A stretch of DNA of 59,640 nucleotides, the filler included, from Basidiobolus ranarum (taxonomy: Eukaryota): NCBI GenBank assembly GCA_040143965.1. It is 12 parts of 12 records of this genome, joined end to end, with 100 filler letters (N's around TTAATTAATTAA, not from the genome) between each part and the next. Parts side by side here need not be neighbours in the genome. Positions count along the whole stretch, not along the records: positions 1 to 4,892 come from JASJQH010008668.1; 11 more parts are not named here. One strand, written 5' to 3'. The translations under genes and the position numbers were made by a program. Positions 1 to 57,224 of the stretch are shown here, piece by piece. Every line of letters starts with the position of its first letter. The stretch's first letter is position 1. The notes under the pieces were generated by a model. That model made no database searches and was not told where the DNA came from. It saw only the letters and a list, made by a program, of their open reading frames with translations.

Positions 1-1588
1 TAACTAAAGTTAACTATGATGTTGAATAAAGATTAATTATCCAACAGATACACATATTTCTGAGTTATTGAACACAAACTAAGGCCTACAGCCTCTATAA
101 TCCTAAAATTTTCAAGTTAGTCAAGGCCAGGGATGTTTTGTTTGGTGAAGATGAAAATATTTCACCCAAAATTACCCCAGATGATGACAAAAAGCAATTT
201 ACAACTGGTTCAATTATTCCAATTGATTCAAACTAAAACAATGAAGAAACTAACATACCTGTAGACCCTTCAACCAAAGTTTTGCTTACTGAAGTGCCCA
301 ATACAATGCCAGAGATTGCAATAACTATATCCCAAACCAGGAGATCAAATTAGATTAGAAATGGCCCTGATTACTATATCAGTGAGTTCCATACTTAGGC
401 CTTTGCCTGCCAAGCCCAAACACATGACCCACAGACTGTAAAAGAGGCCCTGAATGGCCCTACACAAAATGTTGGAGATCAGCAATGGCTGATGAGTATA
501 AGGCTTTGATTGATAATGAAACTTGGATTTAACCAACTTACCTGATGATAGAAAATCAATTCACTGTCAATGAGTATTTAAAGTTAATCACAACACTGAT
601 TTCAATATAGAAAAGTACAAAGCTAGACTTGAAGCAAAAGGCTATTCCCAAGCACCAGGAATAGATTATACAGAGACTTTTGCTCTGGTAGCAAAGCTCA
701 ATTCTGTTAGATAGTTTTTAGCAATTTTGGCTCAATATCAGTATTATGTATCAAATGGATGTTAAAGCTGCTTTTTTAAATGGCATACTTGCTGAGGAGT
801 TCTATAGGGATCAGCCAGCTGGATGTGTGGACCCAGAAAATTCTAAAAATCACAAATGTCTCAAATCAGACATTTTTGTATTCATATGAAAGTCAGAAAT
901 TTCCTTATCATTCCATGGTTGGCAGTTTGATGTACATCATGATTTGAATACAGCCAGATGTTGCAAATTCTGTGCAAGTTATGTGCCAATATCTTCAAAG
1001 TCATGGATTTGATCAAATCATAGCCAATGAGTGGATTTTCAGTTATTTGAAAGGTACTGTGGATTGGTGCTTAAAATACACATATTCTGGATCAGACTCT
1101 GAGCTGATGGGATATTCAGATGCAAATTGGGGGAGAGGTATTGAAGACAGAAGATCTACAACAGGATAAAAATTTCTTTGCTCTAACGGAGCTATTTCTT
1201 GGAAATCAAAGAAACAACCTACCTTAGCACTTTCAACAGCAGAAGCAGATCACATGGCTGCCTGTGAGGCAAGAAAACAAGCAATATAGCTAAGAAAACT
1301 CTTGGTAGATTTAGGTTATTCTGAAAATTAACAAACTGCAATATTTCAAGATATTCAAAGTTGTATCAAATTAGGTAACAATCCCATATTTCATAACAGA
1401 AGCAACCTTATAGATAGTAGACATCACTTTGCAAGAGAGACTATAGAGAACAAGTTTCATGACTTAACTTATTGTTCTACTGAAGACATGATTGCTGATA
1501 TATTAACCAAACTACTAGCTAGACAGAAATTTGAGAAATTTGGACCCTTATTAGAATTAGTTTATATGACTATTTGATGGATGGAGAG
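1..1588 (+). mobile_element. Degenerate Ty1/Copia pol 3' part (integrase C-terminus, RT, RNase H) ending at a polypurine tract
   Basis: Broken-frame motifs KYKARL.AKGYSQ.PGIDY.ETFA, QMDVKAAFLNG, GYSDANWG..EDRRSTTG, LSTAEA, IDSRHHF.RE and MIADILTK. Purine tract GATGGAGAG lies directly before TGTTG at 1589. Many stops and frameshifts. Confidence 0.93.
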
Positions 1589-1779
1589 TGTTGACATTAG
1601 CATTGCCTAAACACCTATATAGTCATATACAGCTTGGTCCTTTGTAATCATTTAGTTCTCCAAGATATTATTCATAATTATCAATTGGAATTTACATGGA
1701 ATATATTTAAAAACTTAGAAATTCTCAGATATATATATTTTTCAAACTTGAGCTAGAAACCTTAAACTTTGCACACATG

Positions 1780-2061
1780 TGTTGAAAGTCTGGTGACTTG
1801 TGGTACAAGCAGTAATTCCCAAAGAGGAAAATATGGAGTATGGTGACTGCATCTGAACACAAAGTCTAAGGCCAATCAGTTGCTTGTATAGCTGAAATGC
1901 CAAAGTACCATACATTGACAGACTAGGTTAAGGTTCCCTAGCAATATAGACATAGCATACAAGGACTGTTAGCTCCGTGGTTAGAGCACCTTGCTGGAGT
2001 GAAGGAGGCCCCAAGTTCAAATCCTGGCCAGACCAATATTTCTCCCTAAATAATTTCAACA
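1780..2061 (+). mobile_element. Solo LTR-like element (282 bp) containing a tRNA-like sequence (family T)
   Basis: Terminal inverted repeats TGTTGAAA...TTTCAACA; flanks ACATG/ACATA (5-bp target-site duplication, 1 mismatch). Homologous copies at 10456-10649 (-) and 54569-54676 (+). Confidence 0.85.
1963..2035 (+). ncRNA. tRNA-like 73-nt cloverleaf inside family T LTR (pseudo-tRNA; GGA at the anticodon position in this copy)
   Basis: GGACTGT TA GCTC CGTGGTTA GAGC A CCTTG CTGGAGT GAAGG AGGCC CCAAG TTCAAAT CCTGG CCAGACC A: D-stem GCTC/GAGC, T-loop TTCAAAT, imperfect acceptor and anticodon stems. Confidence 0.75.
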
Positions 2062-2159
2062 ACATATTCCTGGGACCTCTCTTAGCACATTCTACACATT
2101 TGTGTATATATACTTGAGTTCTCTTTCTCAAATTATAATCTGAAGCCCCAACTACATTC

Positions 2160-4420
2160 AAGTACTATAGAGCACTGGTGAAAAAATATTCAATACAAAA
2201 CAGGGCGGCATTAAGGAGTGATAATGGTGCCTAGTATTGCCCCAGAGACTTTGCCAGTATTGTTATCAACATAGAATTGAGGAAGAAACTACTGTACCTT
2301 GCACTCCACAGCAAGTTGGAGTTGCAGAGCATGCTAATAGGACCATTTTGGAGATTAAAAGATCAATGTTACATGATCAAAACTTGTATAACCAATATTG
2401 GGCTGAATCCATCTCCACTGAAGTCTATATCAAAGACAGATACCCAACAAAATTGCTACAAATTTCTACTCCACTTGAAGCCCTATATGGATCAAAGCCA
2501 AGTGTGGATCATCTCAGGATCTTTGGTTGCACAGCATATTGCCTAATTCCAGTTCAAAAATAATCTTAATTGGACCCAAAAGCAGACAATGCATATTTCT
2601 TGGTTACTATGATGGATCTAATGCCTACATACAGTTTGATATCAAAATCAGAAGTTCATCAAGTGCAGAGATATAACTTTTGATCTGAAAGCATATTTTT
2701 CATCTCAGATCACATTTCCTGATCCAGAAAACACAATCAGCACAATTCAGGAAGTGTCTGCCAAAACTCCAGCTGTATCTGAGCCTAATTCAATCAAAAT
2801 TTCAGCCCCTATTTCATAAGAGGATGATTTAGGACCTAGAAAATCTTTGAAAAGGAGTTATGAGCCAGGGAACTAGTGGAATACTTCCAACAATGATGCC
2901 TATGGTTAAGCAGACTTTTGCAGCAAGCCACAGACTCTAGATCAAGCTCTGGAGTATCCAGCATTAAGATTATGGGAACAAACAATGTCCGATGGGCTTT
3001 CTTCATTTCAGGAAAATAATGTGGGTTTCAGTCTCTTTTATCAGGAAGAGAGCAAACAGGTTGCAAATGGATATACATGGTCAAAAACTAAGCTGATGAA
3101 ACCATAGAAAAGTATAAAGGAAGAGTAGTTGCAATAGGTGATTTCCAGACTCCATGTGTTGTTTAAATAAACTTTTGCTCCAGTAGCTAAGTTTGGCCCC
3201 ATTGGATCAAATATGGCACAGGCAGTCATCCAAAACCTTGATTTACATCAAATGGCTGTGAAGACAGCCTTTATCAATGGAAATCTAAAAGAAGAGATCT
3301 AGATAGAACAACCGGATGAACTTGTTGCCCCAGAGCATGCTGAAATGGTCTGTAAACTTCAACAATTGCTATATGGCCTCAAGAAAGAACCTAGGGCATG
3401 GTACAGCCAGGTAGATATTGATTTGGAGTCACCAGAATTCCAAAAATGCAGAGCAGATTACAATATATACAGCAAAGCAACTGGAAATAGGATCTTTATC
3501 TTTGTACTATATGTAGCTGATTTGATCATAACCAAAAATGATCTGGAAGGACTTAATCAGACCAAAAACAGCTTATCAAACCAATTTCAGATGACTCATA
3601 TGGGTGAGTTTAGTTATTTCCTTGGAATCCCAATGAACAGAGAAAAACTCAATTGGAAAAACATGTTGAATTAGTCAAGATATATTCTGGAAAACCTGAA
3701 CTGCTTCAGTATGAGAAATAGCAAGCCTGTATCAACATCAATAGATCCCAATGTAAAATTAATCAAACTGATCAGTCCATGTTGGGTGGTTTAATGTACA
3801 TGGTAGTTGATACTTGTCCAGACACTGCTGTGGCAGTGGTAAGTGTTAGCCAATATCTTGAAAATCCAGGATCCAAGTGCAAAACTCTAGTAAACAAATA
3901 TTCAGATATTTGAGAGGAATTGTAGATTTGGTTCTGAAATACTTTGGCACTCTTGATGCACAACATTATGAAGGCTATAGTGATGCAGACAAACTGGGGA
4001 AGAAACCCTGATGCTGGAAGCAACAACTGGATACACTTTTCTCTATGGTAATGGAACCACAACTTGTAATATTACTAAGAAACCAAACATAGTATTTTCC
4101 ACTAGAGAAGCAGAGTATATTGCTGCCTCTACTACTACACCAAAAGCTATGTGTTTATGGAAGGTATTTTCTTTATTACAATACATGCACAATTATGCTA
4201 TTAATATACTTGCAGATCATCAAAGTTGTTTTTCAAAAGCTAAAAACCCTACATTTCTTGCTAGAACAAAACTTGTAGATATTAGGCAGCATTTTGTTAG
4301 AGAAACATTAGTCAATCATAAAATTGAACTTGTCTATTGCCCCACTGAAGAAATGCTTGCCAATATCTTAACTAAACCTTTAATAAAGTGCTTAGTGGAT
4401 GGATCTATGCCTTAAGATAA
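2160..4420 (+). mobile_element. Degenerate Ty1/Copia pol (integrase, RT, RNase H)
   Basis: ORF fragments TVPCTPQQVGVAEHANRT, HLRIFGCTAY, CKLQQLLYGLKKEPRAW, LYVADLII, STREAEYIAA and VDIRQHFVRE...MLANILTKPL, in INT-RT-RH order. Confidence 0.93.
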
Positions 4421-4892
4421 TTTGATACTGAAAATGAGAAGTTAATCAAGTGCAGATATGTGATTTTTGACAAAAAATCAAAATTTTCATCTCAGATCAC
4501 AGTCCTTGAACCAGAAAACACAAGCAGCACTATTCAGGATTTGTCTAACTAGATTCAAGCTGTATCTGAGCCCAATTCAACCAAAATTCCAGCCCCAATT
4601 ACATAAGAAGATAATCCAAGACCTAGCAGATCTTGCAGAGGAAGGACTATGCCAGGAAACTGGTGGAACACTTGCAATGATGATGACTATGCTTATGCTG
4701 CATTCTATGGCTAGCCACAGACTCTAGATCAAGCTCTGGCATATACAGAATCAAGATTATGGGAAAAAGCAATGTCTCACAAGTTTTGTTCACTATGGGA
4801 CAATTAAACATGAGTTTTAGGACCTTTGTAATTGCAAAGAAAGCCAATTGGTTGCAAATGGAGCTGCAAAGTAAAGACTAAGCTGAGGGACC
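4421..4892 (+). mobile_element. Second Copia fragment (integrase C-terminus, spacer, RT start), paralogous to ~2640-3100
   Basis: Visible nucleotide similarity to 2640-3100 (CATCTCAGATCAC, CCAGAAAACACAA, GCCACAGACTCTAGATCAAGCTCTGG); RT-start motif KPIGCKW. Confidence 0.8.
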
Positions 4893-4992
4893 NNNNNNNN
4901 NNNNNNNNNNNNNNNNNNNNNNNNNNNNNNNNNNNNTTAATTAATTAANNNNNNNNNNNNNNNNNNNNNNNNNNNNNNNNNNNNNNNNNNNN
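4893..4992. other. Artificial contig spacer (N run with TTAATTAATTAA, stops in all frames); first of 11
   Basis: Identical 100-bp spacers at 4893-4992, 9882-9981, 14870-14969, 19857-19956, 24839-24938, 29820-29919, 34798-34897, 39772-39871, 44744-44843, 49712-49811 and 54677-54776. Segment lengths fall monotonically from 4892 to 4864. Confidence 0.98.
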
Positions 4993-5508: not shown

Positions 5509-6038
5509 TGTCATGATTCTGATCTTGCCATACTGATCCACTACAAATAGAACTTCTCTATTATTAGATTATGACATCATATCTGCTGTGCCATCCCTTC
5601 TTGGCAATCTGGTGTCAGCTCATCCAGATTACCTTATATGGAAATCATGTTCTTTGGAACATTCCATGAAACCTAACCAACCATGTACTCCCACACATAG
5701 TGTATTTCCACCAACACCTTCCATGGAAGGTCATCTGATCATCCTTACATCATCCCTCTTTGTATTGGTCCTTGTAGTCCCCAACACCCCAACTCTCAAA
5801 CTTGCCACAGTATATTCCCTATTCAGTATATTATGTTTCACCTTGCAATATCTATATAAGCCCCATGTATTCCTTGATCAGACCTCAGTCTGATCAATGC
5901 CAGTTATCAATAAAGATTCTTGCCAAAGTATCTTCCTTGTCCAGTCTTGTCTTGTCTTGTGGTCTACACCCAAGTACTCTCCTGTCTTCTAGCCTCTTGT
6001 TGGTGTTTCCAGTCCTTGTCCAGGTCCTTATTGTGACA
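5509..6038 (-). repeat. Solo LTR (family B, 530 bp, TGTCA..TGACA, probably Ty3/Gypsy type)
   Basis: TGTCA...TGACA ends with flanks GTAAG/GTAAC. The empty site is visible in the paralog at ~54050-54075 (GATCACAAGTAAAAACTAC). Strand inferred from TATA and AATAAA order. Confidence 0.88.
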
Positions 6039-6697
6039 GTAACAACTACAAAGTTGCTATTCAGGCCATGACAAGCACTAATGCCACAATATTGCAATTA
6101 ATTCAGTGTGTGGAAGCAACTAGTCAACAATTATGGAGTCACTCAACAATGATACAAGACCTTCACAATGCTGTACTTGAGTTACAGCAACATGCTGCAC
6201 CCTCTGTCCATTCTCATATGCAATTTCAATTGATCCCACACCATACATATGAATGTCTCAGTGACAATTTAGCAGAGCAGGATATGTGTTTGACCATTCA
6301 GCCTACACAACAACCAAAAATTGCTTGGGCACATGAAAGTAGAAATCTCATATAAACCAGCCAACCAAAAGACTCTGAATATCAGAGCTGATATCACCTG
6401 CTTCAATCATGAGTGGTTAACATTTTGGAAACTGTGTGGAATCTTGCCCAAAATCACCTTGATTTGAGCCAATCTTGAAAAACCAAAAACTGGGTGTTAC
6501 TCTCAAGGTTTTTGGCTTATTTCATGTGGCTTATTCTGGGTTTTTTGCAAGCAAATGGCAATTGGGCTAGTATATGCCTATTCATGAGATATCTCAAAAA
6601 TGTACACAATTATCAACTTGGAAAAGAAAGAAAAGCACCTAAAGAAGTACTCAAGGAGCAGGTAGTTAATAAACCCAAGGGAAAGCAAAGGAGCCAG

Positions 6698-7232
6698 TAT
6701 CACAATAAAGAACTGGACAACAACTGGAAAGAACATCAAGAGGCTAGAAGGCAGGAGAGTACTTGGGTGTAGACTGCAAGACCAGACAATACAAGACTGG
6801 ACAGGGAAGATACTTTGGCAAGAACCTTCATTCATAACTGGCATTGATCAGACTGGGGTCTGACCAAGGAATACATGGAGCTTATATAAATATTGGACAG
6901 TTAAACAGCATATGCTGAATAGGGAATATACTGTGGCAAGTTCAAGTGTTGGGATGTTGAGGAATACAAGGACCAATACAAAGAGGGATGATGTAAGGAT
7001 GATTGGATGACCTTCCATGGAAGGTGTTGGTGGAAATACACTATGTGTGGGATGACATGAATGGTTAGGTTTTATGGAATGTCGCAAAGAACATGACTTC
7101 CATAAAAGGTAACCTGGATGAAGTATCACACAACTACCAAGAAAAGATGGCACAGCAGATATGATGTCATAATCTAATAGTAGAAGAGTTCTGTTTGCAG
7201 TTGATGGGTATGCCAATATCAGTTTCATGACA
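6698..7232 (+). repeat. Solo LTR family B (opposite orientation to 5509-6038)
   Basis: Reverse-complement match to 5509-6038 over its length. The host repeat is uninterrupted at 10200-10235. Confidence 0.88.
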
Positions 7233-8139
7233 GCTCTACTGTCCCACTTACCAAATTCTTTGCACCATCAACAATTTCCATAGTCAGATACACTGGCAAA
7301 AAAGCTTAATTTCACCATGGAACCAGATACACCAGTTGGAGAAGTGCTAAATTTGGAAGTTTATCCAATACCTGGCACCTCTAAAAAGCCAAAACACCAG
7401 CAAATTGAACTCATGGCACTCCAACCGCAACTGTTACTTTTTAAAAGGTTGAAATTAGTCCCAAACTTAAAGGCAAGCAAAAAGCCACACAAACACCACA
7501 AAGCATCCTCAGTAGGGTCACACTACAAGGACACATAAAAATAGTACAAGTGCTTGAGGTGTATTTTCAAAAGTATGAAGGGAAAAGTGCAGTGAAAGTA
7601 TGTGAAAAGTGGCTTCAGAAGAAAAACATTCAACTTGACATTCAGTCTGGTGTTGACCATGCATATATTTGGGAAGAACTTAATAAAGAATGGCAAAATA
7701 TAACAGGGTATCTGCCAGATAGCTGGAAGAATGTTGATTCAGCAATGTTAATACAATGGTGGGCTTTGATGGAGATATTGATACAAACTTGTGCTGGATA
7801 TGAGCTAAACCTTGGGTATGAAGAACCCTATAACAATATTCAGGAGAATATTTCAAAGAAACTAGGTATTTCAAAGATGACAAATTAGTGTTCATATAGC
7901 AAATGTGTAAAATATGAGTTACATTTTTTGGACATGTTTTGATCCATAGTTCTCTGAGATTGTAGCTAATCATGTGCAACTATTTTGCAAGAACTCAAAA
8001 TTTCACTGCAGAAACTGAAAAAAATGATTAAAATCAAATCTAACTTGACAATTTCATGACAATAAGTAAACAGTCAATCCAAAATGGATTAATTTTGTGA
8101 TGGTTTTCCTACTATAATATTCCTCAAATTTCTGTTAGG

Positions 8140-9981: not shown

Positions 9982-10455
9982 TGAGCCAATAATGGAAAAC
10001 CAAAAACCAGGCATTATTCTGAAGGTTGTTGACTTATTTCATGTGATTTATCCTGGGTTATTGCTAGCAAATGATAATTGGGCTAGTATGGGCCTATTCA
10101 AGAAACATCTCAAACATGTACACAATTATCAACTTAGAAAAGAAAGAAAAGCAGCTCAAGAAGTACTGAGGGAGTAGGAAGTTAGTACACTCAAGGGAAA
10201 AGCAAAGGAGCCAGTGAGCTTAGGCTCTACTGTCCCACTTATCAAATTCTTCACACCATCACAAAGATTGGCATTTCCAGAGTCAGATATACTGGCAAAA
10301 AGGCTTAATTTCACCATGGAACTGGGCACACCAGCTGGAAGAGTGCTAAATTTGAAAGTTTTTTCAACACGTGGCACCTCTCAACAAGGCAAAACACCAG
10401 CAAATAAAACTCATGGCTCTCCAACCTCAACTGGTACTTTTCAAAGTGTTGAAAT
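9982..10455 (+). repeat. Family X internal fragment
   Basis: Collinear with 6465-6697 plus 7233-7455, without the LTR insertion. Confidence 0.8.
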
Positions 10456-10649
10456 TGTTGAAATCATTTAGGGAGAAACATTAGTCTGGCCAGGATTTGA
10501 ACCTGGGACCTCCTTCACTCTAGCAAGGTGCTCTAACCACTGAGCTACCAGTCCTTGTATGCTATGCCTAAATTGCTAGGGAACCTTAACCTAGTATGTC
10601 AATGTATGGTACTTTGGCATTTCAGCTATACAAGCAACTGATTGGACTT
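10456..10649 (-). mobile_element. Family T (tRNA-containing) LTR, 3' two thirds
   Basis: Reverse complement matches ~1868-2061, including the terminal TTTCAACA. Confidence 0.88.
10482..10554 (-). ncRNA. tRNA-like 73-nt cloverleaf inside family T LTR (AGA at the anticodon position in this copy)
   Basis: GGACTGG TA GCTC AGTGGTTA GAGC A CCTTG CTAGAGT GAAGG AGGTC CCAGG TTCAAAT CCTGG CCAGACT A: perfect D and T stems, A box TAGCTCAGTGG, B box GGTTCAAATCC. Confidence 0.8.
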
Positions 10650-10849
10650 GATCCATAGTTCTCTGTTATTGTACCCAATCATGCGCAACTATTATGTGAG
10701 ATCTTAATATTTCACTCCTGAAACTGAAATAATTGATTAAAATCAAATCAAACTTGACAATTTTATGATAGTAAGTAAACAGTCAATCCCAAATGGATTA
10801 AAATTGTGATGGTTTTACAACAATAACAAACCTCAAATTTCTGCTAGGG
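10650..10849 (+). repeat. Family X terminal segment ending TAGGG
   Basis: Matches ~7940-8139 and ~29530-29732. Confidence 0.8.
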
Positions 10850-11860
10850 GCTGTGCCATACAACCAAGGCCACAGTAGCCAGTCAAAAGAGATGAAGCTT
10901 CTGCCATTGTTGAAGAGGCAAGAACTGCCAAATGCAAACCTCAAGATATATGACTTGCTCCAAGACATACTGGAATGTAACCATGGCAATAGCCAATTGA
11001 AAGAGAACAAGCTTCCACTGTGGTTGAAGAAGCAACAAACACCAAACCCATCACAAGGTAGATGACTTGCTTCAAACATACTGCCATGCCAAAGAGATCA
11101 TGGTGGCCAGTCAAAAGAGATGAAGCTTCAACCATAGTTGAAGAGGCAAGAACTGCAAACTTGAACCTCAAGGTATACAACTTGCTCCAACACATACTGC
11201 CATGCAATTGCAGCCATGGCCAGTCAAAAGAGATGAAGCTTTTACTGTGCTTGAAGAATCAACAACTGTCAGCACATCATCTTAGAGTGAGACATTCTGA
11301 GTAAACATGTAGCACTGCATGCCAGCAGCAATGGCTTGTTGACCCATCAAGTGAAGGCTCCACATCTGAAGAAGAGACTGTAGAAGCAAACTAACCACAA
11401 TCCAGACCAGACAAGCCAATGCTTACCACAAGGCATCAACCTCAAGCAAAAACTCATGCTGGCCAAGGTAGACAATCTTTAACAGGATCAAACCTACCAA
11501 CCCAATGCAGAGATTCAAGTAAAGTTGCTTCTGTGGAAATATCAAGGTGACAAACACAAATAACAGAAGCAAATCAGCATGTACTGCTTCAAAGCTGCGC
11601 AACTGCTGAACACTCTTGTTAATGCTTGCATTAACCTATCATTACTGTTTAGCACATCTTGCAAAATTGATATGGATTGCAGTTGAATATAGCTCAAATT
11701 GCTTTAATTGGATCCTGATTGCTTATGTCTTTATGAAACACTGATAGTGTGAAATTGTGCTATATCAAAAAAATCCATGATAGCTTATTAATTTAAGTAA
11801 TTTCACTACAGTTAAATGAAAATGTCTGTCAATAAACAGCATATGTCACTGTATTGACCT
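10850..11860 (+). repeat. Unclassified interspersed repeat family Y with ~114-bp tandem units
   Basis: Unit anchor CCAGTCAAAAGAGATGAAGCTT (or variant) at 10879, 10993, 11107 and 11220. Collinear with 40030-40910. Confidence 0.8.
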
Positions 11861-13045
11861 AATTACCAATCACTGTATGTGTAGTGATGAGCAATTTAGA
11901 CTGTAACTTACCAAATCAAATGAAGAACCAAGCTATTCACATGTTTTTAGGCAAATCATTTGTCTGTCACTCATACAATATCCTGATCTTTAGTTGGGCC
12001 TAATGGCTCCTGCATTATGAGACACCAGTAGCTTTGGCACACCAGTGGCAAATCGCAGACCTTGACAATGGTTTTATCTGCAGTATGATAGTATTAATCA
12101 GAATAACTTAATTGATCATTTTAAGATTAGCAAATTATTCATTCAATCACGTAAGCTTGTCATTAGGTGAGAGTGTGCACTGATTGATCCATATAAGCCA
12201 ACAAGGCAGCACAAGCTATTTATTGACATATGTGTTAGATTTTTCTGTAGTTAAATTGCTAATATTAAGAGGCTATCAGTGATTTTTTGATATATGACTA
12301 TTGCATGCTCTCAGTGTATCATAAAGACATAAGTAATAATGATCTAACTGAAGCATTCTAAGCTATGTTTAAATGCAATCCATTTTGCTTACACAGGATG
12401 TGTGAAACAGGAAAGATAGGATAGTGTACATGCTGATTCACTTTTGTTATTTTGTTAACTCCTTAATATTTCCACAGAAGGAACTTTGATTGAACCTCTG
12501 CACTGTGTTAGCTGGTATGATGCTGCTGAAGTTCTGCTACCTTGGCCAGCATGAGTTGTGGCTGGTGGTCAATGGACTGTGGTATGTGTGAGCCTGTCCA
12601 GTCTGGTTTGTGGTTTGTTTGGATATACAATATCTTCAGCAGATGTGGAGCCTTGACTTAATGGGCCAACCAGCCATTGGTGCTGGTGTGCAGTACTATG
12701 AATTGACCTCAAATGTTGCACTTAAGGTTCATGCTTGACAGTTATTCATTCTTCAAACATGGTTGAAGCTTCATCTCTTTCGATGGACATGGCAGTGATT
12801 GTATGGCAGTATGTGTTGGGGTAAGTTATCTACCTAGAGGCTTGAGCTTGGCGGTTTGTGCCTCTGCAACCATGATAGAAGCTTCTTCTCTTTCAACTAG
12901 CTGAAGCCAAGGTTGCATGGTAGTATCTGTTGAAGCAAGTCATCTACCTTGTGATTCATATTTGGAGGTTATTGATTCTTTCACCACAACTGGAGCATCA
13001 TTTCTTTTGACCGGCCTTTGCCATGATTGCATTCCAGTCCGTACA
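11861..13045 (-). repeat. Family Y, inverted copy abutting the + copy
   Basis: Reverse complement is collinear with ~40050-41250 and with 10850-11860. Confidence 0.75.
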
Positions 13046-15219: not shown

Positions 15220-17760
15220 TCAAGTTCTCTGTTGTTGCTGGTTGCTTTCCTTTCCTACCTGTAGGCTTTTGCTTGAGAGCAAATTTTTGATTAGATTTTG
15301 AATACTTTTTTAATGGCTTTGAAATATTCCAATGGTAGATTTGATGTGCAGAAATTGCTTACACACAACTTATAACAAACCAAACATACCATTCATTCCT
15401 GATTATATCTTTTAAATCCTCTAATGACTCATCTATGCCACTCTCTCAGAATCAGTGATGATATTGATGCAAAATATCAAAAATACCACACCTATGTAGT
15501 GGGTGTTCTTTTTCTACAATATGCTTCTAAAGCTGCCACACAAATGTTGAAAGATGACCTGGCATTATGGTGACAAATTCATGTGCTATGAAATCCAGAG
15601 ACTTCATAGAGAATGGAAGCACAAAAATATACTCACAAGCACAGTCACTTTACAAAGCCACCAGCTACACCAAGCCTGGTAAGTAGCAACTGTAATAAGT
15701 GCAAAAAATTGGCTTTTGACTTGCTCACTGAGTCTCTTGGCTGTGCTTTACCACAAAGTATAGGTAACACTGCTGAAAATCAAGATACCACACAGGTACC
15801 ACATTTATATGTCCAGATTGATGTGGGCGGAAGTGCAACTTTGGGTGAGCTACTAAGTCCAGACAACTTTCAGGACATGCTGCTTGATGTTGACCTTGGT
15901 TATTCCATTACTGATGGTAATAAATCAGAAGATGAAGTAGAAGATAATGATTTATTATGGACTCTTTGTTATTGGCAAACAATAGTCCACTCATAACACT
16001 AATAGTAAAGGAGTCTGCTTCAATTTTTGAGGAGTGGTGAGCTCAATCTAATTATAGCAACCAGGTGTTTCCTGGTATTCATATACTGGTACCACAGTTG
16101 ATTGGCAATTGTTGCTTGTTACTGACCTTTTACAAGTGGAAAACACCTATTTACTGTATGACATATAATCCTTCAGCAATTAAACAATCTTCATATCCAA
16201 ATTGTTGTTTGGCTTTCACTTGTGATCTGAAAACCCAAAATCATGTACTGCTTATACAAAATTGTCAATCGCTGAATCAGGTAAATAACATTCATATTTG
16301 GCATATATAGCCTTGATTCCTTGTCTTAAAGTTTTAATGAAATCACTCATAATATGAGTGTCAGAGCTGACATCACATGCTCTGATGATGAGTAGTTTAA
16401 CATTTTGGAAACTGTATGGAACCTTGCCTAAAATCACCTGGATTTGGGTCAATCATGGAAAAACCAAAAACCAGGCATTACTCTGAAGGTTCTTGACTTA
16501 TTTCATTAGATCATTGATCCAATACCAAAGTACTCACGGTAAGGCAACAATGCCACTTACTCAGCTATATTGTGGAAAATTCAATTTAAATGAGCCATTC
16601 AAGATATTATCAAACTTTGAATAAATTGGCAAAATGCATGAAAACATCAAGATACAATTATATTTTACAAGCACTCCTGTCAATATCAACTCATATAGGC
16701 ATTTACTTAAATGCAATGGCTGGAAGTATTGGGTTTGTGAGCATTTAAGTGCAATCATGAAAAGACTTCTCCCTTATAAGTATTGGCAATATTGGTAATA
16801 GTTTGTGGATATGGTTAATATATTCTCACAGCATCAACTCACATTGGCATATCTCAGGCAGAGACAGCAACTTGGAAAAATTTTGTAACTGGATATGAGC
16901 ATCTTTGTTACAGGTTTAAAGGAGCTAGCCTGAATCTATTCCTGTATTCAATGCAATCCTTGCTTCATCTTTTACAATTGTCAGAAATTATAGGCCCTTT
17001 CTATACATTGTGGGGGTTCCCAATGGGGCCTACATACAGTGAAATGATGCTCCATTTGAACTTGTCAATATTGCCATATGCTAATCCAATTAACCATGTA
17101 TCAGCAAAATCAGTCATGGATGAAATGCAAAGGGTTAAGGAGACTCCTGCTTATGTTACCCTTTCAATATAAGGCTCTTTACAATGTGTCCCATGGGTTT
17201 TTGCATTGTTTGAGCACAATAACAGTAAAAAAACCCTAACCATAGATACAGATAGTATTTCTTGGAAAGCTACAAGATGCATCCAATGAGATTTACACAT
17301 TGGTTGCAAACTCAGAAGGTATTGTATCTAGGTTAAGGATTATGTAATACCCTATATATCAGAAGTTCAACAAGAAGATAATACTTTTGTTACAGGCTCT
17401 TTGTTAGGGGCAAGCATTAGTCTGCTCATAGCAGTTGCAGTAAAGGAAGCAGCATTGATTATTAAGGAGTGAAGAGGTCAATCCAATTATAGCTACCAAG
17501 TGCTTACTGGTTTTCTTACACCTTTACAATCATTTGATTTGCAGCTGTTGCTTGCCACAGACCTGGCACAAGTGGAAAACACTTATCAACCATATGACCT
17601 ATGATCCTTCAGTAAGTATCCTACCTTTGGTTTAAACTACTATTTGGCTTTCACCAGTGATCTGAAAAACAAGAAGTCATGCCCTAACAGAAGTTGGAGG
17701 ATTGCTATCATAGGAATGCTATCACCATTATCATTGGACTTGTTCCATTGTGCCAGGATT
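15220..17760 (+). mobile_element. Rearranged CACTA/EnSpm-like (family X) remnant
   Basis: 15220-15860 is the reverse complement of ~53140-53730. 16360-16510 matches 6385-6525. 16000-16250 is repeated at 17440-17690. Contains a transposase fragment. Confidence 0.65.
16540..17130 (+). pseudogene. Transposase_21 (Tnp2/EnSpm-like) C-terminal fragment, second copy
   Basis: Reads HLLKCNGWKYW...KRLLPYKYWQYW...SMQSLLHL....IIGP.YTLWGFPM, homologous to ORF 51968-52408 and the sequence downstream of it. Confidence 0.75.
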
Positions 17761-25940: not shown

Positions 25941-25952
25941 GGGCTCATAACC
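25941..25952 (-). promoter_or_regulatory. Primer-binding site GGTTATGAGCCC (copia/Ty5-type half-tRNA-iMet PBS)
   Basis: Immediately follows the LTR 3' end (...TTTAACA|GGTTATGAGCCCC on the minus strand). Confidence 0.85.
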
Positions 25953-26300
25953 TGTTAAAGTATCTGGGAGCCTGTTGGAAGTGGTTAAGAGAATTAAAGG
26001 AATTGGTGGTTTTCACTTATTTATTTATTGAGTAGCAAGTTGACATTCATATTTTTGTCAAGATGTAAACAAAAAGACATGTAGAATATGTTAAGGAAAG
26101 TCCCAGGAACCTGGGTACAAAGCTTGGGGCCTCTAGCACAAGTTTGAAAGCTCTATATATCTGAGAATTTCTAAGTTGGTAAGAATATTCAAAGTGAATT
26201 CCAATTGAGAATAATTGATATTATCTTAGTACGTTATAAGATAACTAAGTACAAAGCTATATATGACTATATAGGTGTTTAGGCAATGTTAATTTCAACA
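25953..26300 (-). repeat. Copia 5' LTR family A (348 bp)
   Basis: TGTTGAAA...TTTAACA followed by PBS and gag. Homologous to 1589-2125 and 54777-54921. Confidence 0.9.
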
Positions 26301-29467: not shown

Positions 29468-29732
29468 GGTGACAAACTAGCATTCAAGTGGTAATTATGT
29501 AAAATTTGAGCTACGTTTTTTGCACATGTGTTGATCCATAGTTCTCTGAGATTTTAGCCAATCATGTGCAACTTTTTTGCAAGATCTGGAAAATTCACTC
29601 CTGAAACTGAAAAAATTGATTAAAATCAAATCTAACTTGATGATTTTATGATGCTAAGTAAATGGTCAATCCCAAATGGATTAAAATTGTGATGGTTTTC
29701 CTACAATAACAATCCTCAAATTTCTATTAGGG
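29468..29732 (+). repeat. Family X terminal segment ending TAGGG
   Basis: Matches ~7876-8139. The flank 29733-29819 matches 51517-51603. Confidence 0.8.
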
Positions 29733-33837: not shown

Positions 33838-34734
33838 TTAAGCGGGCATATGGCAATAAGTGAATGGGAAGGTATACTTACAAGTTGAGAAATTAGAGAA
33901 GTGATGTGATTGATGTATATTAGCAATGAACGGGTGCCAATAAGACCAGTAAAAACTCTCGGCATGATTATAATCATATGAAGATGAGCTCTCAGTGTTT
34001 ATCGCTGACCTTAACAACGTTTCCTGATAAGCTAGATGATCGCTCAAAGACTTCGACCATCCTTTCAACTCTCTGTGAGTTATGTTGAGATTAAATGAGA
34101 GAATAGTTAAGAATTCTTTCTCCATTATGTTGATTTCTTGAAGAGGGATTCCAGTCACTTCGGACCAAGTACGATTCGTAAAGGCATTATCGTCTAGATA
34201 TTTGTTTGCCAGCATAAGCGATACGGCAAACAATCTCCCTTCAGAGCTATCAGCCCCTTTCGTACAAGGGCTAGAGTTCTTGAATCTCTGAATGTATAAC
34301 AAGGCGAGAAGCACTACTGGTACTGAGACTTGAGAGGAAGATAGTACCTGGTAGCAAAACCCATGAAATGCAGGATCTGCGGGTTTCTCCAGCCGACCAG
34401 AATTAAAATGCCATATTGAGCATGCCATATCCGCGCAAAAATGAGCTAATCGACTGATATCAATGTTCATAGTTTGTTTTGATAAAACCGGAGATGGGTT
34501 ATGACTAAAAGGGCTTGGTTCGGGTACAAACGACTGCTTAGAAACCGAGTATCGACGAGAGGGAGGAAGAGAGAAAGAAGAATGATGAGAAAGATTTTGA
34601 TCGACGTAGGAGTAATAAGGCCAAGAAGGGAATAAAGGTGAAATGGCAAAGATGGAAGAATGATGGCTAAAGGCAGAAGTGAACATGAGCTGAGATGCCT
34701 TCATGGTTAAATTGAAGCCACGGCTGAGACCCAT
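33838..34734 (-). CDS. Pho80/PCL/Clg1-like cyclin
   Basis: 298-aa ORF with cyclin box VLLALLYIQRFK...RLFAVSLMLANKYLDDNAFTNRTWSEVTGIPLQEINIMEKEFL. True start uncertain (near contig end). Confidence 0.88.
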   Translation of the reverse strand: MGLSRGFNLTMKASQLMFTSAFSHHSSIFAISPLFPSWPYYSYVDQNLSHHSSFSLPPSRRYSVSKQSFVPEPSPFSHNPSPVLSKQTMNIDISRLAHFCADMACSIWHFNSGRLEKPADPAFHGFCYQVLSSSQVSVPVVLLALLYIQRFKNSSPCTKGADSSEGRLFAVSLMLANKYLDDNAFTNRTWSEVTGIPLQEINIMEKEFLTILSFNLNITHRELKGWSKSLSDHLAYQETLLRSAINTESSSSYDYNHAESFYWSYWHPFIANIHQSHHFSNFSTCKYTFPFTYCHMPA

Positions 34735-34897
34735 TGGCCACCCAACCTATGCTATATATATGCTCATTGAAATCCCAAAAACGAGAAGAAAAGGGATNNN
34801 NNNNNNNNNNNNNNNNNNNNNNNNNNNNNNNNNNNNNNNNNTTAATTAATTAANNNNNNNNNNNNNNNNNNNNNNNNNNNNNNNNNNNNNNNNNNNN

Positions 34898-40029: not shown

Positions 40030-41500
40030 GCTAGTGAAGCTCTTACCTAGCTGAAAGAAGCAACAGCAGTTGTACACCACCCTGAAGGTAGACAATTTAT
40101 TAAAGCACATTTTGCCATACCACAGAGGGCATGGCTGCCAGTCAAAAACTATGAAGCTTCCACCATGGTTGAAGAGGCTAGAATGGCCATAAACAAACCT
40201 CAAGGTAGATTACTTGCTCCAACATGTACTGACAGGCAACCACAGCCATGAACAGTCAAAAGAGATGAAACTTCTACCATGGTTGAAGAATCAATACAGT
40301 TAAGCACAGGCCTCAAGTAAGGGTGATGCATAGAACTGGGCACCAGCTGCAATGTCTGGTTGACCCATTAAGTCAAGGCTGCACTTCTGAAGAAGAGACT
40401 GTAGTTATAAACAAACTGCAAACTAAACCAGACATGCCAAGGCAAACCACAGTAAATTAATCTTAGGCCACATCTCATACTGGCCAAAATAGAAGTACTT
40501 CAGCATGATCAAACCACATCATTCTCATACCACAACTCAAGCTGGCCAAGATAGAGGAATTTCAGCCAGATCAAACAGACCAATCCTGTGCAGAGGTTCA
40601 ATCACAGTTCCTTCTGTGGAAATATCTAGGAGACAACAAGAATAACAGAAGCAAATCAGCATGTACCACTTTAAGCCTGGGCAATAGCTGAACACTCTTG
40701 TTAATACTTACATTATTCTATCTTAACTGTTCAATGAATCATGTGCAATTAATATGGATTGAAGTTAATTATTGCACATATTGCTTTAGTCAGACAACAA
40801 TTGCTTATGTATCACAGAAATCAATGATAGCCTATTAATATAAGCAATTTGTGTACAATTAATGGAAAAAGGTCAGTCAATAAGAAGCTTATGCTGCTGT
40901 ATCAACTTGATATGGCTCAATCCATTCACATCCTCATCTAATTAGAAGCTTACATGATTGAATGAACAATTTGCGGATCTAAAAATGATGAATCAAACAA
41001 TTTTGACCAATACTATCATACCACAGATCAATCCATCATTGAGTGCTGTGATATGTTACCAGTGTGCCAAAACTACTGGTGTTTCATAATGCAGGAGCTG
41101 TTGGGCCAAATTGAAGATCAAAGTTTTGTCTGAGTGAGAGACAAATGATTGGCCTCAATACATGTAAATGGTTTTGTTATATGTTTGATTGGGTAAGTTA
41201 TAGTATAAATTGCTTATTGTTACCAATTCAATAACTGGTAAGTTACAAACTTGGAGTTGAACTTGCCTTCTTGGTTACGCAAAATCTTAATTTGGCAGTA
41301 CTGAAGCAGGTAACTTTCTAGATGCTGACACAGTATCTCCACAAAAATGTTTGTGTCCACTGGTAGTGAGATGGTGCCATATTGCTCCTTCTAGTGTCCA
41401 ATTGGGTGTTATAAGACCTAGCCATGGTAACTGATACAATGTGCCAGATAGTGTGGTATCAGGCTGGATCAAGTGGCATGATCTGCCCTGGTCTGATGGA
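40030..41500 (+). repeat. Family Y, longest copy
   Basis: Tandem units at ~40030-40320, then a body shared with 11270-11860, 11861-12720 (reverse complement) and 26310-26960. Confidence 0.75.
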
Positions 41501-46328: not shown

Positions 46329-46401
46329 GGCCCTGTAGCTCAGTGGATAGAGCGTCCGCCTCCTAAGCGGAAAGTCCCGGGTTCGACCCCCGGTTGGGTT
46401 G
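46329..46401 (+). tRNA. tRNA-Arg (anticodon CCT)
   Basis: GGCCCTG TA GCTC AGTGGATA GAGC G TCCGC CT CCT AA GCGGA AAGTC CCGGG TTCGACC CCCGG TTGGGTT G: perfect D, anticodon and T stems, CpGs intact, T-runs downstream. Confidence 0.9.
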
Positions 46402-53150: not shown

Positions 53151-54568
53151 GACCAAAGTTGCACTTCTATATACATCATTCCAGTCATATGACTGTGGTA
53201 ACTCCACAGTATCTTGACTTTTGGCAGTGTTACCAAAACTTGGAGGCAAAGTACAGTCAGTGGACTTAGTGGGCAAAACAAAAGTCAAATTTGTGCACTT
53301 ATTACTGTTAATATTTACCTGGCTTTGTGCAGCCGGTAGCTTTGTACAGTGACATGCTTGTGATTATTTTTTCTATGAAGCCTCCAGCTTTCATAGCACA
53401 AGAATTTGTGACAATAAGAGCAGGGCTTCTTTAAACATTTGTGTTGGGGCATTAGAAGAATATTGTTGAAGCAGGAACACCTCCTACATAAGGGTGGTAT
53501 CTTAGGTATAGCCCATCAATATCATCAGCTGATTCTGAGATGGTGTCACAGATGAGTAATCAGCAGATATACAAGATATTTCTGGTAATGGATGGCAATT
53601 TTGGTGTATTTTAAGCTGTTTCTAAAAAATTTCAATGCCATTCAAAAAGTGTCCAAAATTTAAATCTAAATTGGCTTCCAAGCTAAAGCCTGCAGGCACA
53701 AAAGGAAAAAAACCAGCAAGAACATAAGACTTAATTAATGAGGAGTCTAGCAATCCACTATCCTCTCTCCACTTTGGAAGGCATTATCATGCTGTAAACT
53801 AACTCAAGTAATGATGAAGCATTAATCAATTAACCAGATCTGTTTCTTTCCAGCAATAGTTCAAGTGAAGAGATTGTAATCCCCCAATTACATAGTAAAT
53901 AAATAGTTGAGAAAGTTCAATGAAAACACCATCAAGACCATCAACTTCCAAAATGGCTACTTTACCCACTATTGACAAACCTCTGCAGAATATTTGGATA
54001 GGATTAATACAATAAGGAAGTTGTAGGCAGAACACCATAATGATTTGTATGTGATCACAAGTAAAAACTACAAGGTTGCTATACAGGCCATTACAAGTAA
54101 TAATGCTGCAATATTGCAATTAATGCAGCATTTGGAAGCAACTAGTCAACAGTTAGAGCATCACTCAACAATGAGACAAGACCTTCAGAATTCTGTACTT
54201 GAACTACAGCAACATGCTGCTCCCTCCATCCATTCTCATACAGGATTGCAATCAATCCCACATCATACATACAAATGTCACCATAACAATCTAGCAGAGC
54301 AAAATATGTGTTGGCCCATAAAGCCTACACAATGACCTGAAATTCCTAGGGCACATAAAAGTAGAAATCTCACAGGAAAACTGGCAAACCAAAAACTCTG
54401 AATGTCAGATTTGCCTTCACTGCTCTGATGATGAGTGGTTTAACATTTTCAAAACTGTGCAGAGTCTTGGCAAAAATCACCTGGATTTGAGCCAATTGTG
54501 AAAAAACCAAAAACCAGGCATAACTCTGCTGGTTCTTGACTTATTTCATGTTTCTTTTCCTGGGTTTT
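53151..54568 (+). repeat. Family X arm adjoining the transposase 5' end, with a coiled-coil-like ORF relic
   Basis: Collinear with 4993-6545. ORF relic AILQLMQHLEATSQQLEHHSTMRQDLQNSVLELQQ is also at 6068-6355. Confidence 0.75.
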
Positions 54569-54676
54569 TGTTGAAAGTCTGGTGACTTGTGGTACAAGCA
54601 GTAATTCCTAAAAGAGGAAAATATGGAGTATGGTGACTGCATCTGAACACAAAGTCTAAGGCCAATCAGTTGCTTG
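54569..54676 (+). mobile_element. Family T LTR, 5' part, cut by the contig end before the tRNA-like region
   Basis: Near-identical to 1780-1886 (TGTTGAAAGTCTGGTGACTTGTGGTACAAGC...GGCCAATCAGTTGCTTG). Confidence 0.9.
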
Positions 54677-54776: not shown

Positions 54777-54921
54777 TATTTCAACACTTAACACATTCCA
54801 CACGTTAGTTTGTTTACATCTTGACAAAACTATAAATGTCAACTGAATACTCAATAAGTGAAAACCACCAATTTCTCTAATTCTCCAAACCACTTCCAAC
54901 AGGCTCCCAAATACTTTAACA
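54777..54921 (+). repeat. LTR family A 3' end
   Basis: ...CCACTTCCAACAGGCTCCCAAATACTTTAACA matches the reverse complement of 25953-26095. No PBS follows. Confidence 0.85.
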
Positions 54922-55489: not shown

Positions 55490-56440
55490 TCAATTGGAAG
55501 GCCCCCAAGCAATCACTCTTCGTTTGTCACTGAATATCTCGAAATCATCGTATTGAAATATAGGTTGATGTGATAGAAACCCGTAGTCAGCACAACAAGG
55601 CATAGAAAGACAATACTTCTCTTTCACCTTCAAGCGATCCCAAAAGTCTTGTAAGGGTGCATGGGTGTGTACACCTAATACAATGTGATAATCGTAATCT
55701 CCCTCCAATTCCTCACTGGGTATCTCAAACTCTTGTGAATAAGCTTGTACACATATCAGTCGCTTGCTGATGTCTAGGCCTAATTGTTGGGGCTTTACCG
55801 GCTTCATCCGGGGATCAATCGAATAGATCTTCCATATATCTGGCGTTTTAAGACAAAATACACCGGCGGTAAATGGGATTTTTCCATCTCCTGGCACCCA
55901 AAGACATACTTTCTTCAGCCAAAAATTCACCTTCAGTTGTGATTGAAGTTTTTGTAAAGCGATGAATATCCCAATAGTTTCAGTGATCTCTTTCGCGGAG
56001 ATCTTGGTTTTATGAAGTACCAATTTCATAAGTGGTTGATAGCGTGTCTTTAAAAGTTTATCATGAAATATCAGCAGAAATTTGGTTATGTGTATACCAG
56101 TTGGATAAATGAAAGGTAACTGTTCGTAGAATGCTTGTTTGTCTATAGAACCCTCATGGTTGGATTTCCTCTTGTTCTTCCCTTTCAAACCATTTTCTAC
56201 TTCTGAGAAAAGAGCTATGGAGCTCTCTTCGGGCTTTGACTCCTCCATTATTTTCGGGTCTTCGGTGATCTTGCAATGACATCCAACTAATCTCTCTTCC
56301 AACTCTTTCTTGGCCACACGTTCTTGTGCAAGTTCGGTTTTTAGGTTGATAACGTTTCGTTGGGTTTGTCTTAATAAGATTTCCAAGGTTTCAACTCTTC
56401 TTTCCAACTGAGTTACTTCATCGTTAGCAGTATTGGACAT
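55490..56440 (-). CDS. Intronless 316-aa protein: N-terminal coiled coil plus putative SAM-methyltransferase-like domain
   Basis: Intact ORF with heptad-rich residues ~5-50 and motifs LWVPGDG, IYSIDP, IVLGVHTHAPL and SMPCC. The function is inferred. Confidence 0.7.
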   Translation of the reverse strand: MSNTANDEVTQLERRVETLEILLRQTQRNVINLKTELAQERVAKKELEERLVGCHCKITEDPKIMEESKPEESSIALFSEVENGLKGKNKRKSNHEGSIDKQAFYEQLPFIYPTGIHITKFLLIFHDKLLKTRYQPLMKLVLHKTKISAKEITETIGIFIALQKLQSQLKVNFWLKKVCLWVPGDGKIPFTAGVFCLKTPDIWKIYSIDPRMKPVKPQQLGLDISKRLICVQAYSQEFEIPSEELEGDYDYHIVLGVHTHAPLQDFWDRLKVKEKYCLSMPCCADYGFLSHQPIFQYDDFEIFSDKRRVIAWGPSN

Positions 56441-57224
56441 AATTAGTTTCTATTCAACCAAGGAGTGAGGATATAGGTAGGTGGACGAAGTTAGGTCAAG
56501 GAAAATAATACAACTATTGAATATTTCTTTTTCTTATTCGTTTTGAAAAGAATAAATAACCCAGTGAGGATGTATGGTATCACTTGGAGCGAGTTTATAA
56601 AGTTCAATACCTAGAAATTACCCTAACTAGATTCAATTTGGACTCAAGAACTATCATTTGAGTGAAAATGGCTCAATGAAATCGACTACTTTTTTTTTTC
56701 TTCCTCTCGTAATTTGGATTTCATATCATATTGATGTTAACATATCCATTCGAAAATTTCCAACCGATGCTTTATTGATTTTTCAGTCCTGTTGCAACAA
56801 GTAAACCAGTTTAAAGTATCACGTGAGCTAATATGAAGGGTTATGGAGGGAAGGGCAGAGTGAGGGGTGAAAAGGGAATAGAAGAGAAGTCAATATATCA
56901 ACTTAATTCAAGGGATAAATGAAATAAAAATTATGTGTACAAGATCTGACAAAGAAAACATAACCGTAGAGAGGACAAGAGGTAAAACAATACAAAATGA
57001 TGCAAGGTACATTGAGATAGAAGACTTCGCTTAGAAAGAAGACATAATGACAAACGTGATTAAAGTGGAGGAGGGTATATAAACACAAATGGGAGGTTGG
57101 AGAAAGAGGTGGTACAATCTACCTCATGGAGTTGCATTCAGGTAGTCTGTCTAGAGTGGTAATCGAGTGGATTATCATTTATACTATATATCGGCAACTG
57201 AGGGTTTTGGAAGCTAACAAGTCC

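Follow-up and report, generated by a model that had tools for sequence, protein, structure and literature searches.

What kind of element is the 282-bp unit at positions 1780-2061 of this stretch of Basidiobolus ranarum DNA, which has the ends of an LTR and carries a tRNA-like sequence in its interior? The window, i.e. the whole stretch of 59.6 kb that was analysed, is composed of 12 unrelated contigs of 4864-4892 bp with a GC content of 31-40%. They are arranged by descending length and connected by spacers of the form N...TTAATTAATTAA...N, the first of which occupies positions 4893-4992. As the contigs are joined pieces, distances between features of different contigs are meaningless.

Structure and insertion site of the 282-bp unit

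The complete copy of the element (copy 1) and its insertion site comprise the following features.

1780-2061 (+): copy 1, complete LTR-like unit (solo LTR) of 282 bp with the ends TGTTGAAA...TTTCAACA
1775-1779 (+): left copy of the target-site duplication, ACATG; a single 5-mer in the empty paralog
2062-2066 (+): right copy of the target-site duplication, ACATA, matching the left copy at 4 of 5 positions; comparison with the empty paralog
26110-26114 (-): empty site CCAGG in a paralogous Copia LTR; alignment with the filled site
1589-2107 (+): host of the insertion, a Copia 3' LTR (1589-1779 and 2067 to approximately 2107) interrupted by copy 1

The termini of copy 1, as read from the sequence, form an 8-bp terminal inverted repeat of the TG..CA type, and by eye the exact inverted repeat stops after these 8 bp. 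The unit is short and without coding capacity, and reading of its sequence revealed neither an A-rich nor a simple-repeat tail.

In blastn, the left flank (1589-1779) aligns to positions 26300-26112 on the minus strand and the right flank resumes at 26109. This paralogous Copia LTR (26300-26080, minus strand), which is approximately 80% identical, runs uninterrupted across the site of copy 1. It contains one 5-mer, CCAGG, versus ACATG, the 282 bp and ACATA in the filled site. Because the empty paralogous site has a single 5-mer, copy 1 is regarded as a discrete insertion with a 5-bp duplication; this duplication could be checked on the one complete copy (1/1), copies 2 and 3 described below being incomplete.

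An earlier note on this DNA had described a 282-bp unit with these ends, a 5-bp duplication ACATG/ACATA, nesting of the unit inside another Copia LTR and the absence of a SINE-like tail. All four observations were borne out: the unit by the sequence itself, the duplication by the empty paralogous site, the nesting by the identification of the host as a Copia 3' LTR, and the missing tail by the lack of any A-rich or simple-repeat stretch at the end.

Further copies in the window

A blastn search of the 59.6-kb window (word size 7, E values up to 1) detected exactly two copies beside copy 1. A short match at the start of another contig is listed with them.

10456-10649 (-): copy 2, element positions 89-282, 93.8% identity, 3' terminus intact; blastn
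54569-54676 (+): copy 3, element positions 1-107, 98.1% identity, 5' terminus intact, ending at the contig end; blastn
54777-54786 (+): possible end of a fourth copy, contig start TATTTCAACA, 9 of 10 nt identical to the 3' end of the element

Copies of the element are present in 3 of the 12 contigs, at unrelated sites and each with the termini still left to it, so that the 5' terminus is confirmed in two copies and the 3' terminus likewise in two. The flanks of copies 2 and 3 belong to another repeat, which is approximately 80-87% identical between contigs. Two empty versions, near 6545 and near 10063, correspond to the 5' junction of copy 3 and both run on without the element, and an empty version near 7456 corresponds to the 3' junction of copy 2. 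Since the flanks differ and empty paralogous junctions exist, copies 2 and 3 are considered independent insertions. In copy 2, the first 88 bp are missing along with approximately 470 bp of the flanking repeat, and a microhomology of a few bp is found at the joint. As this 5' loss is a deletion that includes flanking DNA, it is not a 5' truncation of the SINE type.

The repeat around copies 2 and 3 was found at 6038-8139, 9982-10849, 16355-16506, 29531-29732 and 54060-54569. It is either a non-coding family or a set of diverged duplicated segments, distributed over five contigs and with large indels between its versions.

After TATTTCAACA, the last contig continues as a third paralog of the host Copia LTR, approximately 15 bp downstream of the site of copy 1. 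With 10 nt only, this match is suggestive at most of the end of a fourth copy; that Copia LTR family may have been hit twice within one short stretch, and the match also agrees with contig breaks inside the element.

No paired LTR, PBS or PPT of this element was detected by blastn in the 59.6-kb window, where the element occurs as three partial or solo copies. A search for direct repeats (minimum length 80 nt, at most 2.5 kb apart) yielded two families in the window, and neither of them is this element. No PBS motif was found next to the element's own ends, the sole GGTTATGAGCC in the window belonging to a Copia LTR. Exact scans of metagenome, viral and prokaryote-genome contigs with a 28-mer from the 5' end and a 30-mer from the tRNA-like part of the element gave 0 loci each.

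The tRNA-like unit

The interior of the element contains a tRNA-like sequence with motifs resembling the two boxes of an internal Pol III promoter. The consensus of the A and B boxes applied in the motif scan is general knowledge, and the gathering score of the Rfam tRNA model RF00005 is 29 bits.

1963-2035 (+): tRNA-like cloverleaf of copy 1, 73 nt, element positions 184-256; ARAGORN 'Ser(gga)', Rfam RF00005 40.2 bits
10482-10554 (-): corresponding cloverleaf of copy 2, better preserved than that of copy 1; ARAGORN 'Ser(aga)', Rfam RF00005 56.3 bits
1970-1980 (+): A-box-like motif TAGCTCCGTGG; copy 2 has TAGCTCAGTGG; motif scan
2014-2024 (+): B-box-like motif AGTTCAAATCC; copy 2 has GGTTCAAATCC; motif scan

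The unit lies in sense orientation and begins 183 bp inside the element, approximately two thirds along the LTR; 26 bp separate the end of the cloverleaf (2035) from the right end of copy 1. In copy 1, the A box is mutated and the T stem is broken. Serine tRNAs possess a long variable arm, which both of the 73-nt units lack. The label 'Ser' given by ARAGORN is ill-fitting because of this length and the short variable loop. The tRNA-like unit of the element is not a working tRNA.

In both copies that reach this region (2/2), the unit has the same offset from the 3' end of the element. Copies 1 and 2 also have in common approximately 95 bp of non-tRNA sequence upstream of the unit and the 26 bp downstream of it, and this sharing indicates that the tRNA-like unit is mobilised inside a larger unit and not as the head of a SINE. 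Between the two copies there are 12 differences in 194 positions, 6 in the 73 of the tRNA-like part and as many in the 121 outside it; from these counts, nothing shows conservation or selection after insertion.

The earlier note agrees with these results in several respects. It had placed a 73-nt cloverleaf with A and B boxes at 1963-2035, as ARAGORN and Rfam (40.2 bits) confirmed, and it had claimed that the tRNA part travels within the element, which holds given the same offset in the two copies reaching it. Its statement that two other contigs carry copies with exact ends and different flanks is also correct, one terminus being kept per copy, and blastn and ARAGORN both reproduce its distinction between copy 2, which contains the tRNA, and copy 3, which ends before it.

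ARAGORN and Rfam detected three tRNA matches in the window, namely the units of copies 1 and 2 and a tRNA-Arg(CCT); no 5S-like or other Rfam family reached its gathering score anywhere in the window. A T4 run on the sense strand is absent from all three copies of the element, which contain TTT at most. The tRNA-Arg(CCT) gene (46329-46401) is ordinary-looking with 58.2 bits in Rfam and, unlike the units of the element, has T runs directly downstream.

Resident Copia elements

Two features of a resident Copia element are located in the contig that also provides the empty site.

25953-26299 (-): resident Copia 5' LTR, 347 bp, starting with TGTTGAAATT and ending with TTTAACA
25942-25952 (-): primer-binding site GGTTATGAGCC, immediately after the resident Copia 5' LTR

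A primer-binding site that corresponds to the anticodon loop of the initiator tRNA-Met implies half-tRNA priming, as in Ty5 and Drosophila copia. The first 8 nt of the element, TGTTGAAA, are identical to the 5' terminus of this resident LTR (25953-26299, minus strand). The element and the resident Copia LTRs furthermore resemble each other in ending with ...ACA and in their mutual nesting. Beyond the termini, however, no similarity was found between them (blastn, word size 7), and the resident Copia LTRs lack a tRNA-like unit such as the element has, the three tRNA matches in the window being those named above.

A Copia reverse transcriptase is encoded in the window, as the Pfam domain RVT_2 was detected at 3303-3674. 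With this domain, the LTR with the matching 8 nt and GGTTATGAGCC, a plausible Copia partner is present in the same genome, which is a statement about presence only. When the Copia reverse transcriptase fragment was used as a protein query in order to find longer proteins, no match was obtained.

The host LTR of copy 1 starts with TGTTGACATT at 1589; a purine-rich tract occupies positions 1576-1588, and the pol reading frame ends near 1577. On its 3' side the host LTR is cut short, and from approximately 2108 the sequence aligns to and translates as the integrase region of another Copia element. The motif TGTTATCAACA at 2261-2271 was considered as the end of the host LTR and rejected, because the region from approximately 2108 is integrase coding sequence of that other Copia. 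The contig as a whole (1-4892) consists of nested and decayed Copia pieces: a pol 3' end with the truncated LTR (to approximately 2107), an integrase-reverse transcriptase stretch (approximately 2108-3674) and a second integrase segment (4398-4886), which is 75% identical to 2611-3096.

Other features of the window

A reading frame for a PHO85-type cyclin (33838-34746, minus strand) is 100% identical to a protein of Basidiobolus ranarum, and paralogs of it in the same species show 88% and 70% identity, in agreement with a genome rich in diverged duplicates. Among the nearest cyclin clusters of a protein atlas, Basidiomycota was the commonest phylum, an indication overruled by the direct matches to Basidiobolus proteins. 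A reading frame at 55490-56449, on the contig with the third paralog of the host Copia LTR, has a protein of B. meristosporus as its best named relative (79% identity). The segment 10873-11268 holds internal tandem-like repeats (10875-11038 versus 11103-11265, approximately 80% identical) and also matches 12215-13038 and 40107-40830. A direct repeat of 97 nt (16095-16191 and 17531-17627), 76% identical and with a spacing of 1436 bp, could represent a small LTR pair or a chance similarity.

Comparison with known elements

In SINEs, the tRNA part forms the 5' head, a body and a tail come after it, and the length of the target duplications varies. SINE2 elements are similar to the element described here insofar as they are short, non-coding and dispersed and possess A and B boxes in a tRNA-derived unit. 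They differ from it in that their head is at the 5' end and a tail is present, whereas the unit of this element begins 183 bp inside and the element has a 5-bp duplication and no tail.

Small-RNA genes inside LTRs are known from the Cassandra TRIMs of plants, which are non-autonomous LTR retrotransposons, and the element would be similar to these in that its LTR includes a small-RNA gene whose Pol III promoter is internal (PMC10886601). The LTR of Cassandra is derived from 5S rRNA, whereas this element has a tRNA-derived sequence and the window contains no 5S match at the gathering score; moreover, Cassandra is known from plants (PMC10886601), while the host of this element is a fungus.

TRIMs with a tRNA-derived sequence in their LTRs have been described as 'Helenus' by Kojima (2024, Biology 13:119; PMC10886601), who united them with Cassandra (5S) and Ajax (5S) as TRIMp3. 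The reported families amount to 113 in the Pucciniales (rust fungi), with a few more in Agaricomycetes. The hosts are mostly fungi and animals, with Selaginella moellendorffii as the single plant species (PMC10886601); the statement in the earlier note that tRNA-bearing groups are from plants does not match this list. Fungal Helenus elements produce 5-bp duplications, many of their families are known only as solo LTRs, and mobilisation by Copia was proposed (PMC10886601). Their tRNA-like units are mostly non-functional and inflate tRNA predictions, often as Ser-AGA or Thr-AGT and with isotype disagreement, and their transcription by Pol III was stated to be unvalidated (PMC10886601).

According to the available part of that publication and its supplement, Helenus consensus LTRs open with TGTTG or a similar sequence and close with ...ACA, and their tRNA-like unit is located towards the 3' end. 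In the same part, the PBS regions of Helenus resemble those of Copia and are mostly of the initiator-tRNA anticodon-loop type, and a PBS of the GGTTATGAGCC type, which represents the anticodon loop of the initiator tRNA-Met, opens many fungal Helenus internal regions (PMC10886601). Fungal LTR lengths given there range from 111 to 284 bp, and 282 bp is therefore within the Helenus range as far as this part extends.

The element agrees with Helenus, again in relation to the available consensus sequences, in that the 3' third of the LTR contains, in sense orientation, a tRNA-like unit with both boxes (A and B), and in the ends TGTTG...ACA. Further common traits are the 5-bp target duplication, the survival as solo LTR, the isotype mismatch of tRNA predictions such as Ser-AGA, and a Copia element with a PBS of the GGTTATGAGCC type in the same genome. 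The two differ in several points. In Helenus, two LTRs enclose a short non-coding internal region with PBS and PPT, altogether under approximately 1.3 kb, whereas this element is known from solo and partial LTRs alone. In the Pucciniales consensus LTRs that were available, a T4 run follows soon after the tRNA-like unit (judged by eye), while this element has no T4. Finally, the fungal hosts of Helenus are Basidiomycota, and Basidiobolus belongs to the Basidiobolomycota (NCBI taxonomy).

At the level of sequence, the comparison consisted of exact-motif look-ups in the supplement and of inspection by eye. The first 18 nt of the element, which would sit at the start of a FASTA line, gave 0 matches in the Helenus supplement, and a 14-mer of the T-arm/acceptor region, which line wrapping could hide, likewise gave 0. 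Two Helenus families of Cronartium contain a 17-mer of the T arm, a part that is conserved among tRNAs anyway. Except for this 17-nt motif, the Helenus consensus sequences have no match to the element in exact-motif look-ups. By eye, the acceptor and T-arm parts resemble the Helenus-4 families in the available part of the supplement.

Alternative explanations

The unit could be the LTR of an autonomous Copia family that is transcribed by Pol II and in which the tRNA-derived segment is a passenger, for example an old SINE or tRNA insertion. This agrees with the Copia type of the termini and of the 5-bp duplication, with a length of 282 bp that is ordinary for Copia LTRs, with the abundance of Copia fragments in the window and with the fact that no internal region of the element was seen there; in addition, 'not a few' LTRs in Repbase hold tRNA-like pieces, and only the short ones were classed as TRIMs (PMC10886601). 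However, Copia coding sequence does not lie next to any of the copies (0/3) as an internal region of the element: the duplicated target borders copy 1 on both sides, and the sequence at the preserved junctions of copies 2 and 3 runs on in the empty paralogs. The position of the unit about two thirds along the LTR and its sense orientation also correspond to the Helenus consensus, as far as the latter is available, and membership in an autonomous Copia family is consequently rated as unlikely. A MITE that has 8-bp terminal inverted repeats, duplicates 5 bp of its target and took up a tRNA-like sequence would explain a short, non-coding unit whose ends are an exact inverted repeat. Such an origin is quite improbable, as the inverted repeat ends after 8 bp (by eye), the resident Copia LTR has a 5' terminus that matches the TG..CA ends, and no transposase family was linked to the ends, while 5 bp is the Copia value reported for fungal Helenus (PMC10886601).

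The two remaining explanations give the cloverleaf itself the leading role. A tRNA-derived SINE (SINE2), or a composite of one, mobilised by a LINE would account for a tRNA-like unit with A and B boxes in several dispersed copies, but 183 bp of the element precede the unit and 26 bp follow it, and the upstream part, although common to the copies, would lie outside any Pol III transcript. As the tail is missing, a fixed 5-bp duplication is found at TG..CA ends and the 5' loss of copy 2 is due to a deletion that includes flanking DNA rather than to truncation during retroposition, this explanation is close to refuted and has hardly any probability left. Spreading of a working tRNA gene by the element is just as far-fetched. 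It is true that the unit of copy 2 (56.3 bits) scores near the tRNA-Arg at 46329-46401 (58.2 bits) and that a few fungal Helenus families might encode tRNA-His or tRNA-Thr (PMC10886601). The anticodons AGA and GGA would read serine codons, but they stand in 73-nt units without a long variable arm and differ between the copies (GGA versus AGA in copies 1 and 2), the stems of copy 1 are broken, and no T-run terminator follows.

An LTR-type element with a tRNA-like Pol III unit is the best reading of the sequence and fits all of the evidence. The unit at 1780-2061 is probably, judged by these structural features, the solo LTR of a Helenus-type element, i.e. a short non-autonomous element with a tRNA-derived unit and Pol III boxes in its LTRs.

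Proposed mode of amplification

By analogy with Helenus and Cassandra, a full element would have one such LTR at either end and between them a short region with PBS and PPT. An internal Pol III promoter might then be provided by the tRNA-like unit in the upstream (5') LTR, with transcription starting near LTR position 184. From there the transcript would cover the final 26 bp of this LTR, cross the short region from PBS to PPT and extend into the 3' LTR, and readthrough by Pol III might be helped by the absence of a T run. The earlier note had further suggested that such transcription possibly evades methylation silencing of Pol II LTR promoters, and nothing bearing on this idea was encountered. 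In this model, proteins of the resident Copia would reverse-transcribe the RNA and integrate the product. Insertion by a Copia-type integrase would give rise to the TG..CA ends and the 5-bp duplication, and recombination between the two LTRs could leave a single LTR such as copy 1.

Host lineage and significance

The class to which the element is assigned is already published as Helenus, and the element opens no new class. The proposal of the earlier note, a candidate fungal element with a tRNA in its LTR, is upheld in its structural part by the TG..CA ends, the 5-bp duplication and the constant offset in 2/2 copies; its suggestion of a new kind of element is not, since Helenus had been described before (PMC10886601). 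The note had also counted a prior annotation of the family as evidence against its proposal. Such an annotation exists for the kind of element (Helenus), whereas motif look-ups in the supplement did not reveal one for this sequence.

Basidiobolus is placed in the phylum Basidiobolomycota (NCBI taxonomy), far from the Basidiomycota hosts of PMC10886601, and the word 'Basidiobolus' is absent from the text of that paper. A full-text literature search, Repbase apart, found no paper linking Helenus or TRIMp3 with Basidiobolus, and a full-text search that combined terms for TRIMs or tRNA-like elements with early-diverging fungal taxa gave none among the matches listed. The Helenus screen of 2024 took Repbase LTRs as its starting point and went beyond them only for relatives of genomes that had proved positive (PMC10886601), so that Basidiobolus was probably never examined in it. 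Basidiobolus may thus be a new host for Helenus-type elements, and the element described here, as its sequence suggests, is a probable new Helenus-type family in a fungal lineage from which no Helenus has been reported.

The chances are about even that Basidiobolus possesses its own recently active, high-copy lineage of TRIMs with tRNA promoters (Helenus/TRIMp3). This is suggested by the presence of copies in 3 of 12 random contigs of 4.9 kb, by the 98% identity of one pair of copies and by contig ends that fall within the element. Short-read contigs seem to be interrupted by this family. If such a lineage exists, it would inflate tRNA gene counts and fragment short-read assemblies in Basidiobolus. 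Programs for tRNA prediction will call the units tRNA-Ser, and tRNA counts for Basidiobolus need masking, as was shown for rust fungi (PMC10886601). The host range of Helenus-type elements would be extended to an early-diverging fungal lineage, which bears on the question of their repeated origin. A high-copy lineage of its own in Basidiobolus would mean that Pol III-driven LTR retroelements arose repeatedly in fungi by the same route or, alternatively, that they are of much greater age, or pass between lineages much more readily, than the survey of 2024 showed.
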